Made by a program: the position numbers and the translations under genes
The notes under the pieces: model-generated
Seen by the model: only the letters and a program-made list of their open reading frames with translations
What the model was told of the DNA's origin: nothing
Database searches by the model: none
Shown: one piece after another, positions 5,139 through 17,419 of the stretch
Numbering within the stretch: the stretch's first letter is position 1
Layout: every line of letters begins with the position of its first letter
Origin: Deltaproteobacteria bacterium
Lineage (GTDB): Bacteria > Desulfobacterota > GWC2-55-46 > UBA9637
NCBI GenBank assembly: GCA_030690165.1
Contig: JAUYHF010000055.1
Coordinates: forward strand, 3,493-67,492
Direction of reading: 5' to 3'
Length of the DNA: 64,000 nucleotides

Positions 5139-5379
5139 TACCCAAAAATAGACTTTGATTTTTGGGGAAACCTGCAAGTTGCCTGTCAGACGAGGCAGAG
5201 GCTATTTTTGCGACAAGCCGTATATCACCAATACGGTGAGGAGCAAAAATGCGCCGATAACGAAGTATGGCAGGCAAATCGCAGGTTTGTAAAATAGCGA
5301 GGTTTTTAATCGCTATTTTACAGTGATAACAAGATATTGCGCAGGGATTAGTATTTTGTTATAGTTTTTAGAATTTATT

Positions 5380-6951: not shown

Positions 6952-8418
6952 ATGCCAAAAAATAATAATATGAAAGAAGGTCTTGCCTTTGACGATGTTT
7001 TATTAGCGCCGGCATATTCAGAGATACTGCCAAGGGATGTGGATACATCTACACGACTTACAAATACAATCAAATTAAACATCCCTCTTTTAAGCGCTGC
7101 CATGGATACGGTTACGGAATCCCGCATGGCCATTGCCATAGCGCAGGAAGGCGGCATGGGTATAATCCATAAAAATATTACCATAGAAGAACAGGCAATA
7201 GAGGTTGACAAGGTAAAAAAATACGAAAGTGTTATCATACTTAAACCCAGAACCCTTGACCCGGAGCAGCGTTTATACGACGTATTGGAGATAAAAAAGA
7301 CTGAGCAGATATCCAGTTTTCCCATAGTGAAAAACGGGAAGCTCGTAGGCATCCTTACCAACAGAGATTTAAGATTTGAAAAAAACCTCTCCAAAAAAAT
7401 ATCGGATGTGATGACAAAAGAGCTTGTAACAGCGCCTGTTGGCACATCCATAGAAAAAGCAAAAGCCATCCTCCATCGCCACAGGATTGAAAAGCTGCCT
7501 GTAGTGGATAAAAACGGGCAACTAAAGGGTTTGATAACCATTAACGATATTGAAAAACGAGAAAAATATCCAAACTCCTGCAAAGATAAACTCGGCAGGC
7601 TTATGGTCGGCGCAGCGATTGGCGTTTCTTTTGACCGTGAAGCAAGGGTGGAGGCGCTTTTAAACGCAGGCGCTGATATCATTGCCATTGATACGGCCCA
7701 CGGCCACAGCAAGGGTGTGCTGAATGCTATTAGGGATACAAGGAAGAACTTTCCCAAATGCCAGCTTATAGCAGGCAATGTCGGGACATCTGAAGGCGCA
7801 GAGGCGCTTATAAAAGCCGGTGTTGACGTAATAAAGGTCGGTATCGGTCCAGGTTCTATATGCACGACAAGGATTGTAACAGGTGTTGGCATTCCACAGA
7901 TAACAGCTATTATGAATTGCGCGGCAGTTGCCAGGAAAAAGAATATACCGGTTATTGCTGATGGCGGCGTAAAGTTTTCAGGAGATATGGTAAAGGCCAT
8001 TGCCGCCGGCGCAGACTCTGTAATGATCGGCGGACTCTTTGCCGGCACAGATGAAAGCCCCGGCGAAACTGTATTATATCAGGGACGGACATATAAAATG
8101 TATAGGGGCATGGGCTCAATTGAAGCTATGAAAAAAGGCAGTAAAGATAGATACTTTCAAGATGATGTTGAGAGTGAACTTAAACTTATTCCTGAGGGTA
8201 TTGAAGGAAGGGTTCCGCATAAAGGGCCGGTATCTTCAACTATATTTCAGCTTATTGGCGGCTTAAAATCAGGCATGGGGTATTGTGGTTCAAGGACTAT
8301 TCCTCTTCTTCAAAAGAAGGCAAAATTGGTAAAAATAACCTTTGCAGGGCTGCGCGAGAGCCATGTCCACGATGTGATTATCACAAAAGAGGCGCCGAAT
8401 TATAAGGTGGTGGAGTAG
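6952..8418 (+). CDS. guaB: IMP dehydrogenase
   Basis: TIM barrel with tandem CBS domains; catalytic loop [11 protein letters not shown]; 488 aa. Confidence 0.95.
8356..8418 (+). repeat. Direct repeat copy A (guaB 3' end, 63 bp)
   Basis: 59/63 identical to 9171-9233; copy A is the in-frame end of guaB. Confidence 0.85.
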
Positions 8419-8438
8419 ATAAAATTGCAGAGCGGAAG

Positions 8439-8645
8439 ATGGGTAAAGGTATAGATATGAGAAAAAGTAAGGTTTTGAGGTTTGATGAAATTATGAACCT
8501 CTATGATGAATTGTTTCCTGGTAGAAAAGGGGTAAGGATTGATACCCTGCTAAAATCTGTTGCCCCGAAAACAGTAGCCGAAAGGTTAAAAGAGACCATC
8601 CGGATTTCAGAAAAATTAGTATGGAAAAGACCCTCAAAGAGATAA
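8439..8645 (+). CDS. Small hypothetical protein (68 aa), upstream partner of nucleotidyltransferase
   Basis: ORF overlaps the downstream NTase gene by 25 nt (translational coupling); no recognisable family. Confidence 0.4.
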   Translation: MGKGIDMRKSKVLRFDEIMNLYDELFPGRKGVRIDTLLKSVAPKTVAERLKETIRISEKLVWKRPSKR

Positions 8646-9172
8646 TCAGGATTTTTGAACATGCCGGAGATGTTAAGGCTTATGCCCTTATAGGCGGATT
8701 GGCTGTCGGCGGATGGATTGCGCCGAGGGCAACAAAGGATATAGATATTCTGGCTGATTTATCCGTTACTACCCGTTCCGCAATAGAACGAGTCCTGAAG
8801 AAGTTTTTAACAGCAGGTTTTAAAGGAAGCATACAAATAGGCGCCCCTGAAGATGATATAAAATTTTGTATAAAAGCAGTATCGGGCGAGAAGGTTCCCG
8901 TTGATATAATATTTGCCAGCCGGAAATGGGAGGCGGAAATAGTTGAGGAAGGCTTGCCGGTTGAGTTGTTGAAGGGCCTCTCCATTCCTCTGGTTAGGCC
9001 GGAGGGCTTGATAACGCTTAAGCTAAAAGCTGGCAGCTTTCAAGACATTGCAGATGCATCAAAGCTTTTAGTCGAAGCCGAGTATGATTTACAAAGATTA
9101 CGTAAACTGGCAAAGAGGGCAAGGGTTGATAAAAGGCTCGAAAGGCTTATGGAAAAATTAGAGCTGGCGTGA
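8621..9172 (+). CDS. Minimal Pol-beta superfamily nucleotidyltransferase (AbiEii/MNT-like fold), 183 aa
   Basis: hG[GS]...DxD motif: YALIGGLAVGGWIAPRATKDIDIL; short size; sits between direct repeats. Confidence 0.6.
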   Translation: MEKTLKEIIRIFEHAGDVKAYALIGGLAVGGWIAPRATKDIDILADLSVTTRSAIERVLKKFLTAGFKGSIQIGAPEDDIKFCIKAVSGEKVPVDIIFASRKWEAEIVEEGLPVELLKGLSIPLVRPEGLITLKLKAGSFQDIADASKLLVEAEYDLQRLRKLAKRARVDKRLERLMEKLELA

Positions 9173-9233
9173 GAGCCATGTCCACGATGTTATTATCACA
9201 AAAGAGGTGCCGAATTATAAGGCGGTGGAGTAA
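9171..9233 (+). repeat. Direct repeat copy B (pseudo 3' end of guaB)
   Basis: Encodes [20 protein letters not shown], a near-duplicate of the GuaB C-terminus, detached from any gene. Confidence 0.85.
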
Positions 9234-9661
9234 TGCAGTTAAACAAAGAATTATTCAATAGCTTTACAAAACAATATCAACTTTCCAAAACCCTTCGCTT
9301 TGAATTGGTGCCGCAGCAAGGGACAGAAAAATTAGTCAGGCAATTATTCGAAAAGCCAGAAGAAAATCATCATGAGATTATTCGAAAAGATTTAGAACTT
9401 TCCAAGAGTTACAAGCATGTAAAAAAACTAATTGATTGCAGGCACAGAAGCATTATTGATGAGGTTTTAAACAAGTTTACTTTTAATGAGAAGGAGTTAG
9501 CAATACTCAACAACAATGGCGATTTAGAGGAAGATGATGATACAGATAAAAAAGACCCGCTTAAAAAACTGCGAGAAAAAGTTGCCAGTGCTTTAGATGC
9601 AAAGTCCAAAATCATGTTTGACAACAAGTTGTTAAATCCAGTAAAATTTCTACTATTGTAG
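9233..9661 (+). pseudogene. cas12a: cas12a (cpf1) N-terminal remnant, 142 codons
   Basis: FTKQYQLSKTLRFELVPQQGT and YKHVKKLIDCRHRSIIDEVL match the conserved Cas12a N-terminus (WED-I/REC1); ORF ends in stop TAG that is part of the first CRISPR repeat; full-length Cas12a is ~1200-1300 aa. Confidence 0.75.
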
Positions 9662-9781
9662 ATTAAACTGGGCGCATGGAAATCTCCTTAGTCTAAAGCA
9701 CCAATAAAATTTCTACTATTGTAGATGAATCGGCCTGTGCGCCCGGACAGGAGTGTCTAAAGCACCAATAAAATTTCTACT
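9628..9781 (+). CRISPR. Type V-A (Cas12a-type) mini CRISPR array: 3 repeats (first 5'-degenerate, last 3'-truncated), 2 spacers
   Basis: Repeats at 9628-9663 (degenerate 5' half), 9691-9726 (GTCTAAAGCACCAATAAAATTTCTACTATTGTAGAT) and 9755-9781 (truncated); spacers 9664-9690 (27 nt) and 9727-9754 (28 nt); repeat 3' end AATTTCTACTATTGTAGAT is the Cas12a crRNA handle with TCTAC/GTAGA stem. Confidence 0.8.
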
Positions 9782-9858
9782 CCCCCTCCGTCATATTTTT
9801 TGATTGTTTATTCCGCTCTTTTAAGTTATATTTTCTTACCATTGCTGCAAATTCCTTT

Positions 9859-11418
9859 ATGCCGGACATCCATCAGCAAAAAATCCTCATATTAGATTTT
9901 GGCTCACAATATACCCAGCTCATCGCAAGAAGGGTGAGAGAGGCAAAGGTATATTGCGAGATACATCCTTATAATATCGGCATGGACGGGATAAAGGGTT
10001 TTAATGCCAAAGGCATTATCCTCTCAGGCGGACCGTCAAGTGTCTATGACAAAGATGCTCCTCTTATTCCCAAAGAGGTCTTTAATCTAAATATTCCAAT
10101 CCTTGGCATCTGTTACGGAATGCAGCTTACAGCCCATCTCCTTGGCGGCAAGGTGGAGAAATCTGCTCACAGGGAATACGGAAGCGCTGAACTTGTAATT
10201 GATGATGGTTCGGATTTGTTATCACGCATCACGCATCACGCACAACGCATCACACAAGTTTGGATGAGCCACGGCGACAGGGTTATTAAGATGCCGAAGG
10301 GATTTGTATCTATTGCCCACAGCAAAAATTCGCCTATATGCGCAATGAGTGATGACAGAAGAAAAATATTCGGCGTTCAGTTTCATCCTGAGGTTGTCCA
10401 TACACCAAAAGGCCGGCAGATTATCAAAAACTTCCTTTTTAAGATATGTGGATGCAAGCCTGTATGGACTATGGAATCATTCATAGACACTGCTGTAGCA
10501 GATATAAGGGAGCGGGTGGGGAAGAGAGGTATCGTGTGCGGTATAAGCGGCGGCGTTGATTCTGCCGTTGCAGCTGTTTTGCTTCATCGCGCAGCCGGTA
10601 GGCAGCTAACCTGTATATTTGTTGATAACGGTCTTTTGAGGGCAGGGGAGGCGGAGAAGGTGGAACAAGCTCTCAGGAAAAACTTCCGCATGAGGCTTAT
10701 TTGTATAGACGCCTCCAAAAGGTTTCTTAATAAGCTTACGGGAGTGGAAGACCCTGAAAAAAAGCGAAAGATTATCGGAAATGAATTTATAAGGGTTTTT
10801 GAAGAAGAGGCCATGAAATTAAAAAATGCGGCCTTTCTCGGGCAGGGGACATTGTATCCTGATGTGATTGAAAGCATATCATTCAAAGGCCCTTCAGCTA
10901 CTATAAAAAGTCATCATAATGTAGGCGGGCTCTTAAAAAAGATGAAGCTCAAGCTGGTAGAACCGTTAAGAGAATTATTTAAGGACGAGGTTCGCATCCT
11001 GGGCAGGGCATTGGGTATGCCTGAAGAGATAATAAACAGGCATCCATTTCCGGGGCCAGGCCTTGCTATAAGGGTTTTGGGTGAGGTTACAAAAGAGCGG
11101 TGTGAGATTCTGAGAAAGGCCGACAGTATAGCGCTGGAGGAGATAAAGATTGCGGGACTTTATATAAAGATCTGGCAGGCATTTGCAGTGCTTTTGCCGA
11201 TTAAAACAGTTGGCGTAATGGGAGACGAAAGGACTTATGAAAATGTAATTGCAATAAGGGCGGTAGAGAGTGTGGACGGAATGACAGCGGATTGGGTAAG
11301 ATTGCCTTATGATATTATGGCAAGAATTTCAACGAGAATAATAAATGAGGTAAAAGGTGTAAACAGGGTGGTTTACGATATAAGCACAAAACCCCCGAGT
11401 ACAATAGAATGGGAGTGA
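9859..11418 (+). CDS. guaA: GMP synthase (glutamine-hydrolysing)
   Basis: N-terminal class-I GATase ([20 protein letters not shown]), ATP-PPase SGGVDS motif, conserved C-terminal dimerisation domain ending IEWE. Confidence 0.95.
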
Positions 11419-16697: not shown

Positions 16698-16991
16698 ATG
16701 AAGACCGCAAAGGTTTCTGAATTAAAGGCATCTATCAGCGAATACCTGTCAAAGGTAAAGGCAGGCGAAGAGGTTATTGTCACTGACAGGGGAAAGCCTG
16801 TCGCCAAGATTATTCCTTTGAAAAGAGGAGATATTGAAATACCGGCGCATCTATTAACGCTGGAGAAGGCAGGGCTTGTCCGCATCGGCGCAGGCAGACT
16901 GCCGGCAGGTTTTTGGGATATGCCGAGACCAAAGGATAAAAAAGGCCTGGCACTCGGCGCCCTTTTAAAAGAGCGGGAGGAAGGGAGATGA
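16698..16991 (+). CDS. Type II antitoxin, Phd/YefM (prevent-host-death) family
   Basis: MKTAKVSELKASISEYLSKVKAGEEVIVTDRGKPVAKIIPL; 4-bp overlap with downstream PIN gene. Confidence 0.7.
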   Translation: MKTAKVSELKASISEYLSKVKAGEEVIVTDRGKPVAKIIPLKRGDIEIPAHLLTLEKAGLVRIGAGRLPAGFWDMPRPKDKKGLALGALLKEREEGR

Positions 16992-17419
16992 TGTTCTGGG
17001 ATTCTTCAGCCATCATCCCTTTATGTATTGACGAGCCGCAGACCAAGACCATCCGGCAGATTGTCCTAAAAGACAGCGCCATAGCAGTTTGGTGGGGCAG
17101 TTTCATAGAATGCTGTTCAGCCTTTGCCCGCTTGCGGCGCGATGGGTTCCTCAAGCCTGATGAGGAAGACGGTGTGCGGCATCTCCTCACCCTTCTCTCG
17201 GATACATGGACAGAGATTGAACCCGGCGAAGATATACGGGATATTGCAGGCAGACTTCTTATGCTGCACCCTCTCCGCGCTGCAGATGCCTTGCAGCTAT
17301 CCGCCGCGCTTGTATGGGCTGGAAAGAGGCCAAAAGGTCATTATTTCGTCTGCCTTGATTCAAAATTGAGAGATGCGGCAAGAAAAGAAGGGTTCACGCT
17401 GCTTCCCGCCCAAATATAA
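16988..17419 (+). CDS. vapC: PIN-domain toxin (VapC-like)
   Basis: N-terminal acidic FWDSSAII, conserved LRAADALQLSAAL motif. Confidence 0.75.
   Translation: MMFWDSSAIIPLCIDEPQTKTIRQIVLKDSAIAVWWGSFIECCSAFARLRRDGFLKPDEEDGVRHLLTLLSDTWTEIEPGEDIRDIAGRLLMLHPLRAADALQLSAALVWAGKRPKGHYFVCLDSKLRDAARKEGFTLLPAQI

Follow-up and report, generated by a model that had tools for sequence, protein, structure and literature searches.

The stretch of DNA considered here (the window) covers 64,000 nucleotides (nt) of contig JAUYHF010000055.1 from a deltaproteobacterial metagenome-assembled genome (MAG; GCA_030690165.1), and its subject is the interval between guaB and guaA, in which the end of guaB is present twice. 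The first copy closes an intact guaB, and the second, orphaned copy lies downstream of a two-gene, putative toxin-antitoxin (TA) cassette and runs straight into the remnant of a type V-A CRISPR-Cas locus (CRISPR, clustered regularly interspaced short palindromic repeats). Designations beginning with L are those of the contigs and genomes used for comparison. The features from guaB to the second copy of its end are the following.

6952..8418, + strand: guaB (inosine monophosphate dehydrogenase), intact, with stop codon TAG; Pfam IMPDH, E = 9e-166; 94.1% nt identity to guaB of L116
8352..8417, + strand: repeat copy A, the functional guaB tail (21 residues)
8419..8445, + strand: 27-nt spacer ATAAAATTGCAGAGCGGAAGATGGGTA, chromosomal and outside the cassette; at the same position in L106 and L091/L115
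8446..9174, + strand: conserved cassette block of about 727 nt, found with sharp edges at 80-94% nt identity in L017, L083-L090, L092-L104 and L106-L115
8457..8645, + strand: gene for a 62-amino-acid (aa) putative antitoxin; an open reading frame (ORF) from 8439 would give 68 aa, and homologues elsewhere are annotated with 62 aa
8621..9172, + strand: gene for a 183-aa AbiEii/DUF1814 nucleotidyltransferase (NTase), a MenT1-like putative toxin, overlapping the upstream gene by 25 nt
9171..9233, + strand: repeat copy B, the orphaned, untranslated guaB tail, ending in TAA, from the repeat search and the 63-mer comparison

The duplicated guaB end and the cas12a remnant

The repeat search aligned 8352-8417 with 9167-9232 over 66 nt at 94% identity (62/66 matches), and direct comparison of the 63-mer at 8356-8418 with 9171-9233 gave 59/63 matches, with the stop codon among the four mismatches, which bears out the 63-nt repeat and the identity reported in an initial annotation of this DNA. 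A second copy of the 63-mer was found in 0 of 100 shuffles of the sequence, and no third copy of the tail lies within the 64-kb window. Copy A is unchanged across all three strains (the window, L091 and L115), and its 5' part (GTG ATT ATC) is the same as in the backbone relative L116. The substitutions in copy B are all unique to it; two are non-synonymous and change conserved residues, one of them within the conserved KEAPNYK, and copy B differs at 5 of 62 positions from its counterpart (copy B') in L091 and L115, the cassettes of these strains being 97.7% identical. The first mismatch of the longer repeat, a T at 9170 inside GCGTGA, is the stop codon of the NTase and is present in every cassette copy. 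The guaB-derived part of copy B therefore begins at 9171-9175, and the mismatch is cassette sequence, not divergence. At its other end, as the initial annotation had also described, the TAA of copy B and the ATG of the Cas12a N-terminal remnant overlap (TAATG at 9231-9235).

The duplicated-tail arrangement occurs in four assemblies. Besides the NCBI MAG, it is found in a Logan contig of SRR13727534 (L001), where it is identical to the window, and at 97-99% identity in JGI contig Ga0209751_10269866 (L091) and ENA contig k141_2920647 of ERZ4903137 (L115); the last two represent a sister strain, in which the sequence after copy B' differs from the window. Because the same arrangement recurs in independent assemblies, it is not an assembly artefact. 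A chimera of co-occurring guaB-cassette and guaB-cas12a strains could be imagined, since the window comes from a MAG and strain variants coexist in such samples, but the junction of cassette and copy B is present in all four assemblies, from different pipelines and samples and with two distinct downstream continuations, and de Bruijn collapse of a 62-nt repeat would not create a cassette-to-tail junction. Such a chimera is thus exceedingly improbable.

Another explanation is that the second tail has been kept for a function, either as a ribosome-binding and translational-coupling module (GGTGGAGTAATG) or as an attenuator of guaBA. The tail does contain the GGTGGAG that precedes the guaA ATG in L005 and L065, and no terminator is predicted between guaB and guaA. 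This explanation is nonetheless highly improbable: the duplication is found only in this lineage, among about 25 relatives with adjacent guaB and guaA; the 5 differences in 62 positions separate strains that are 97-98% identical elsewhere; the gene that would be served is a dead cas12a stub; and copy B has no Rfam match. No transfer RNA (tRNA) or transfer-messenger RNA (tmRNA) targets and no Rfam families were found at the locus.

Downstream of copy B, the interval continues as follows.

9233..9661, + strand: 5' remnant of cas12a, about 135 codons, reading into a CRISPR repeat
9628..9781, + strand: orphan type V-A mini-array, with a hybrid repeat (9628-9663), a repeat (9691-9726) and a truncated repeat (9755-9781)
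9664..9690 and 9727..9754, + strand: the spacers of the mini-array
9782..9858, + strand: 77 nt between the truncated repeat and guaA, without a copy of the guaB tail
9859..11418, + strand: guaA; the first 57 nt or so (9859-9915) are of the L065 type, and from 9919 the gene is nearly identical to that of L116

The remnant is recognized by the PADLOC Cas12a model (E = 3e-20), residues 6-134 falling on model positions 2-122, with a partial match to TIGR04330. Copy B runs straight into ATGCAGTTAAAC, the Cas12a start, and since the MQLNKELF(N) start is common to other Cas12a proteins, the start that follows copy B is a genuine Cas12a N-terminus. For the same reason, an explanation of the CAGTTAAA motif after copy B as native intergenic sequence was dropped. 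No other Cas ORFs lie between 9233 and 9858, and a full-length type V-A locus with RuvC, cas4, cas1 and cas2 is not present there. The repeats of the mini-array end in AATTTCTACT-NTT-GTAGAT, a motif established as the Cas12a repeat handle, and comprise two full 3' handles and one truncated repeat. In L091 and L115, copy B' is followed by only 17 nt of the cas12a start (ATGCGGTTAAATATAAT) and then by a gene with an HSDR_N domain. The contiguity of copy B with the cas12a start indicates that the orphan tail forms the left boundary of a cas12a-bearing allele and is not the cassette's right end. The only contig with a recorded context for the closest Cas12a fragment, L105, has an unrelated context.

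Several smaller observations concern expression signals on this side of the interval. At 9618-9647 (+ strand), a near-consensus promoter-like site, TTGACA-18-TAAAAT (11/12), is made exactly by the fusion of the cas12a stub to the first repeat and, judged by its sequence, could drive the mini-array and guaA; the count of promoter-like sites in the region overall is not above chance. In relatives, a Shine-Dalgarno-like GGTGGAG stands before guaA, which is there coupled to guaB translation. At the corresponding place here (9840-9861) it is lost; GGTGGAG now lies within copy B, ahead of the dead cas12a ATG, and the sequence before guaA (CAAATTCCTTTATG) has no obvious ribosome-binding site.

The cassette between the copies

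Exactly two overlapping ORFs lie between the repeat copies (8439/8457-8645 and 8621-9172), in agreement with the initial annotation except that the smaller product is annotated with 62 aa in homologues. The 62-aa protein has no match in PDB, Pfam, NCBIfam or PADLOC and no detectable similarity to MenA1, and its overlapping gene is conserved upstream of the NTase in all homologous loci. The 183-aa protein matches Pfam AbiEii (PF08843) with 29.5 bits, against a cut-off of 22.5, and MenT1 (PDB 8AN4) with E = 1e-9, the PRxTxDxD motif and the Lys and Asp of motif III being aligned. The ratio of non-synonymous to synonymous divergence (dN/dS) is 0.2-0.5 over both cassette genes and about 0.2-0.3 for the 62-aa gene, which indicates that both are kept by purifying selection. 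Together they are a putative MenAT1-like TA pair. MenT1 (Rv0078A) of Mycobacterium tuberculosis is a tRNA nucleotidyltransferase toxin that is neutralized by the 68-aa MenA1 (Rv0078B) encoded just upstream (PMC10435456). Like MenAT1, the pair consists of a short (about 185-196 aa) DUF1814/AbiEii NTase with conserved catalytic motifs, preceded by a small (62-68 aa) overlapping gene whose product is without a DNA-binding domain; unlike in MenAT1, the small protein here has no detectable sequence similarity to MenA1, and the toxin and antitoxin roles are putative.

The cassette block (8446 to about 9174) was recovered by protein and locus searches in at least 12 other genomic contexts at 80-94% nt identity, mostly on Nitrospirae and deltaproteobacterial groundwater contigs, where the adjoining genes include macB, pgi, coaX, the smpB neighbourhood and uvrA. 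At these other contexts, of which there are at least 12, a guaB tail and flanking direct repeats longer than 10 nt are absent, and no recombinase accompanies the other cassette copies. Homology among the copies starts some 10 nt upstream of the first ATG or, in many of them, at a conserved promoter (AAACCTTTACAT..N..TATACT), and ends at the NTase stop codon or a few bases past it. The window cassette is without this family promoter (AAACCTTTACAT...TATACT) and begins 27 nt after the guaB stop; given the absence of a predicted terminator between guaB and guaA, its transcription presumably starts at the guaB promoter. The cassette family is also present, at 82% identity, in the guaB-guaA gap of L017, a second and more distant lineage, with different junctions and no duplication, which is either coincidence or site preference.

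These comparisons bear on the proposal of the initial annotation that a small integrative element had inserted at the guaB 3' end, bringing a replacement tail and leaving repeats that resemble the attachment sites attL and attR, with an integrase supplied in trans. In its favour, the insert is discrete, lies at the 3' end of a conserved gene and has direct repeats on both sides, relatives have empty sites, and the same cassette family occupies the guaB-guaA gap of L017. Yet neither a guaB tail nor att-like repeats accompany the other cassette copies; L106 shares the left junction but lacks the right repeat, and L017 has other junctions without duplication; on the right, the join is a microhomology of 8 nt into which the NTase stop codon falls; and what follows copy B is cas12a rather than the sequence of the empty site in the closest relative. 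The initial annotation's statement that no integrase is present is supported within about -3.3/+9 kb: only the two cassette genes lie between the repeats, and the Pfam annotation of the Logan contig gave no recombinase over that range. The att-like interpretation itself was not supported, because at least 12 cassette copies do without tail or repeats, because of L106 and the microhomology junction, and because the tail belongs to the cas12a allele; an integrative element is very improbable. An origin as an integron cassette was also considered: there is no attC-like inverted repeat at or after 9172, the flanks of the other copies are purine-rich and non-palindromic, and no integrase was found.

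The 27-nt spacer between the guaB stop and the cassette matches the post-guaB sequence of the cassette-less L003 at 19/23 positions (P about 1e-8). It was also considered as a remnant of the G/A-rich linker of the Nitrospirae cassette copies, and this origin was rejected, the similarity being poor by eye and L003 matching at 19/23. The linker itself, a purine-rich stretch of about 170 nt (...GGTGAAGGAAATAAATCAGTCCCATTATTGCTTAGATTAAGAT), is seen upstream and/or downstream of the cassette copies in L084, L096, L100, L092/L093 and L017; in L100 it stands on both sides of the cassette, and in L084 a second AbiEii-type pair is in tandem with the cassette. This suggests that TA cassettes occur in arrays, separated by a repeated purine-rich linker. 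A further TA-like pair (a PhdYeFM antitoxin and a 143-aa protein) lies at about 16698-17419 of the window (L001 11407-12128), some 5 kb downstream of guaA.

Junctions, empty sites and the origin of the orphan tail

Two short features describe how the blocks of the interval meet.

8383..8417, + strand: 35-nt guaB terminal block, the probable homologous anchor, identical in the window, L106, L003, L005 and L065
9167..9174, + strand: illegitimate junction, where GCGTGAGA closes the cassette and GCGCGAGA is the guaB counterpart (8352-8359)

At the right junction, 7 of 8 nt are common to the cassette end and guaB, and the sequences on either side are unrelated. In other copies the cassette consensus continues with GCGTGAGATGT, whereas the window is cut after GCGTGAGA and continues with GAGCCATG, which is guaB sequence. 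The left junction can be followed in L106, a deltaproteobacterial MAG in which guaB ends in TAG and is followed by the same spacer of 27 nt and then by a cassette from the clade of the window copy (93-94% identity), with no second tail; the left junction thus existed without the duplication. After the NTase stop, L106 appears related to the cassette-family consensus (GATG..AAAGGC) beyond the point at which the window is cut, so that L106 cannot be derived from the window state by deletion. Compared with L106, the window has a synonymous divergence (dS) of 0.11-0.17 in the cassette genes and of 0.79 in guaB, the last 150 codons included. This discordance indicates that the cassette and its junction with the guaB stop passed between lineages long after guaB had diverged, and it places the crossover in the last 35 nt of guaB. 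The terminal block is the longest invariant run in guaB across five lineages (the next longest is 14 nt), and no mosaic signal was found in guaB against L106, L003, L005 and L065.

The initial annotation had pointed to related genomes for an empty site, and such sites are present in three relatives. In L005 and L065, guaB and guaA overlap directly (guaB-TAATG-guaA), and in the closest relative, L116/L117, which was found by a guaA search, guaB ends in TAG and is separated by 9 nt from a GTG-initiated guaA. An empty target site is expected under every explanation alike. L116/L117 is syntenic throughout, with dS of 0.24 for guaB and 0.22 for guaA. The window has 0 mismatches to L116 over 8332-8396 and then 7 in 22 nt over 8397-8418, and at the differing positions it matches L106, L003 and L065. 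The window equals L106 from 8383 and departs from L116 beginning at 8397, which puts the left breakpoint of the foreign allele within 8383-8396. In guaA, L065-type states extend over the first 57 nt; the match to L116 resumes from 9919 and marks the right breakpoint. A test of guaA for foreignness against L005 and L065 by dS gave a raised dS ratio and no raised ratio for non-synonymous divergence. Judged by these patterns, the composite from 8397 to about 9915 behaves as one exchangeable allele relative to L116, with its limits in the conserved 3' end of guaB and 5' end of guaA.

Altogether, the orphan tail is best read as the scar left when a cassette-bearing and a cas12a-bearing allele were joined by homology-facilitated illegitimate recombination (HFIR), with no part played by an integrase or att sites, a reading to which we give a probability of roughly 0.7. 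Directly observed are the repeat, the empty sites, the cassette-bearing allele without duplication, the sharp borders of the cassette, the microhomology at its end, the breakpoints relative to L116 and the discordant dS values; the order of events, the recipient allele and the route of uptake are inferred. In outline, the guaB-guaA junction of this groundwater deltaproteobacterial lineage would be a variable slot whose contents are swapped by homologous recombination, with the conserved last 35 nt or so of guaB and the first 60 nt or so of guaA serving as anchors. One allele (X) would have read guaB-TAATG-cas12a...CRISPR-guaA, a type V-A locus having been inserted exactly at the stop/start overlap of guaB and guaA; ATGC is found at both edges of the insertion, at the cas12a start and at the guaA start. 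The other (Y) is guaB-TAG-spacer-MenAT1-like cassette, which L106 carries by itself. In the window, the left part of Y, up to the NTase stop, would have been fused to X 62 nt short of the end of the X-side guaB, at the short microhomology GCGTGAGA/GCGCGAGA, so that the exchange had one homologous anchor and one illegitimate end. The tail from X would thereby have been orphaned downstream of the cassette and left to neutral decay, the tail from Y remaining under selection as the real end of guaB. The cas12a locus would have collapsed by microhomology deletions to a stub fused into a repeat, and would have been lost almost wholly in the sister strains. The predicted intact X is guaB ...GGAGTAATGCAGTTAAAC... 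full cas12a-cas4-cas1-cas2-array-ATGCCGGAC guaA, with a tail like copy B or B'. How Y itself arose is suggested by L003, where the sequence after the guaB stop (7462-7500) reads AAGACAGTTAAATAAAATTACAGACTTGAAGATG (TAAAGACAGTTAAATAAAATTACAG...), like the first 20 nt or so of cas12a followed by the motif of the 27-nt spacer. The match is short; this sequence may be the scar of a deleted cas12a locus, and it suggests a derivation of Y from X by deletion.

Several points weigh against this reading. An intact X allele, in which guaB is followed directly by a full-length cas12a, was not found among the genomes searched, and the evidence for X consists of copy B, the cas12a remnant and possible short scars in L091/L115 and L003. 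How far the microhomology extends is set by the parental sequences, and it could be only 2-3 nt long. Copy B' is one substitution from the L003-type tail and the window copy B three from the backbone type, and from such counts, as a rough estimate, the two directions of the event are about equally likely. Competence, or another route of DNA uptake, would have to be supposed for the organism, and all genomes compared are MAGs or metagenome contigs.

A further explanation is that the first insertion of the cassette downstream of guaB made a long target duplication, by a staggered break or a template switch on one chromosome, and that L106 lost copy B later. The microhomology at one junction would fit replication template switching, and the duplication is short and local. 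However, the 3' flank of L106 runs past the truncation point of the window and is not derivable by deletion; the left spacer is shared with the cassette-less L003 and the sequence to the right of copy B is cas12a, so that the flanks are not a single split target; and the dS discordance requires transfer between lineages. A target duplication is therefore unlikely. The duplication-mediated insertion offered as a second option in the initial annotation was nearer the truth than the att-like element, but it placed the duplication in the wrong event.

The initial annotation further regarded the guaB-guaA spacer as a hotspot for insertions. This is upheld for the present clade, in which the TA cassette, cas12a with a CRISPR array and, in the sister strains, a restriction-type gene have occupied it, but it is not general: other long guaB-guaA gaps hold ordinary genes, namely an OmpA-like gene in L010 and membrane or TPR-like genes with conserved, function-unassigned genes in L024, L027 and L034. 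A stronger version would make the guaB terminus and the guaA start a dedicated docking slot for defence cargo that the MenAT1-like cassette prefers. L017 and the clade of the window and L106 both carry the cassette in the slot with different junctions, for which random placement would give a chance of a few per cent, a rough estimate based on about 13 distinct contexts and an assumed 3000 or so intergenic sites. We consider a dedicated slot doubtful; if it were real, it would point to an unrecognized, recombinase-independent targeting or retention of promoter-less TA cassettes behind highly expressed essential genes.

The comparison with L116 also brought out differences elsewhere. Patches of divergence in guaB (7312-7551) and guaA (10159-10278) carry 11-13 and 18-26 mismatches per 60 nt, respectively, over a background of 0-4, and a short imperfect repeat, (ATCACGC)n, falls on the guaA patch at about 10222-10258; the patches suggest further recombination mosaicism, without showing an uptake route. 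At 5141-5323 (+ strand), between a yihY/BrkB-like gene and a hexapeptide-transferase gene, the window has a 183-nt insertion bordered on both sides by TGATA, a 5-bp duplication; L116 has the empty site AAATGATAACAAG instead. The element is also present, at 95% identity and with the duplication (A)TTATT, in contig L096 (3616-3803), which is unrelated. Its RNA fold, a long hairpin with terminal hairpins, has a minimum free energy of -82 kcal/mol, compared with -41.8 kcal/mol in shuffles (z = -10.3), and it has no Rfam match even at E <= 1. From these properties it looks like a mobile element of the miniature inverted-repeat transposable element type.

Comparison with known systems

The mechanism proposed here is itself already known, and the worth of the case is a clean reconstruction across several genomes. 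It offers a nucleotide-level view of the shuffling of defence genes in uncultured groundwater bacteria without mobile-element machinery, in which the short invariant ends of essential genes would act as homology anchors and illegitimate joins would leave orphaned tails. Such tails would be fossil junctions from which an order of events can be recovered, here the arrival of cas12a, its decay, the arrival of the cassette and the fusion. The case is also a caution that a duplicated gene end is not always an att site, and the 62-nt repeats could mediate precise loss of the TA pair.

The closest mechanistic counterpart is HFIR (de Vries & Wackernagel 2002; Prudhomme et al. 2002; Meier & Wackernagel 2003; as cited in PMC5361080 and PMC3240628). 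As in HFIR, one end of the incoming DNA would have been anchored in homology and the other joined at a few bases of microhomology, with no dedicated recombinase or site. Unlike HFIR as described, the event here is reconstructed from the comparative sequence of uncultured bacteria, and its outcome is a 62-nt duplication and not the usual accompanying deletion. The same mechanism and orphaned 3' fragments have been described for rhs, contact-dependent inhibition (CDI) and type VI secretion system (T6SS) loci and for natural transformation (PMC5361080; PMC3240628; PMC3784515), and interchromatid integration during transformation is a documented route to duplications (PMC3784515).

Displacement of 3' ends is established in rhs, CDI and T6SS effector-immunity loci (Poole et al. 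2011, PMC3150448; Kirchberger et al. 2017, PMC5361080). As in these loci, a conserved upstream gene would provide the anchor, a new module would have pushed the old 3' end and its cargo downstream, and the old end is left as an untranslated partial duplicate of the conserved gene. The present locus differs in its anchor, which is the housekeeping gene guaB and no polymorphic toxin gene; in its cargo, made up of a TA pair and the remnant of a CRISPR-Cas system; and in having a single displaced tail and no array. Displacement of 3' ends with orphaned gene ends was reportedly described by Jackson et al. in 2009 as well.

Islands that integrate at the 3' ends of tRNA, tmRNA and protein genes share with this locus a direct repeat of the 3' end that flanks foreign DNA and the retention of a functional gene end. 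The locus differs from them in that no integrase is present, the repeat does not belong to the inserted unit, a microhomology forms one junction and the orphan copy is part of the neighbouring block. Defence hotspots that are flanked by core genes and exchanged through flanking homology are known from the pangenomes of E. coli, Pseudomonas and Vibrio. As in such hotspots, related strains carry different cargo at one position, with TA, CRISPR-Cas and restriction-modification genes represented among L091, L106 and L003; unlike them, the slot between guaB and guaA is very small, lies inside an operon and has anchors of only tens of nucleotides.

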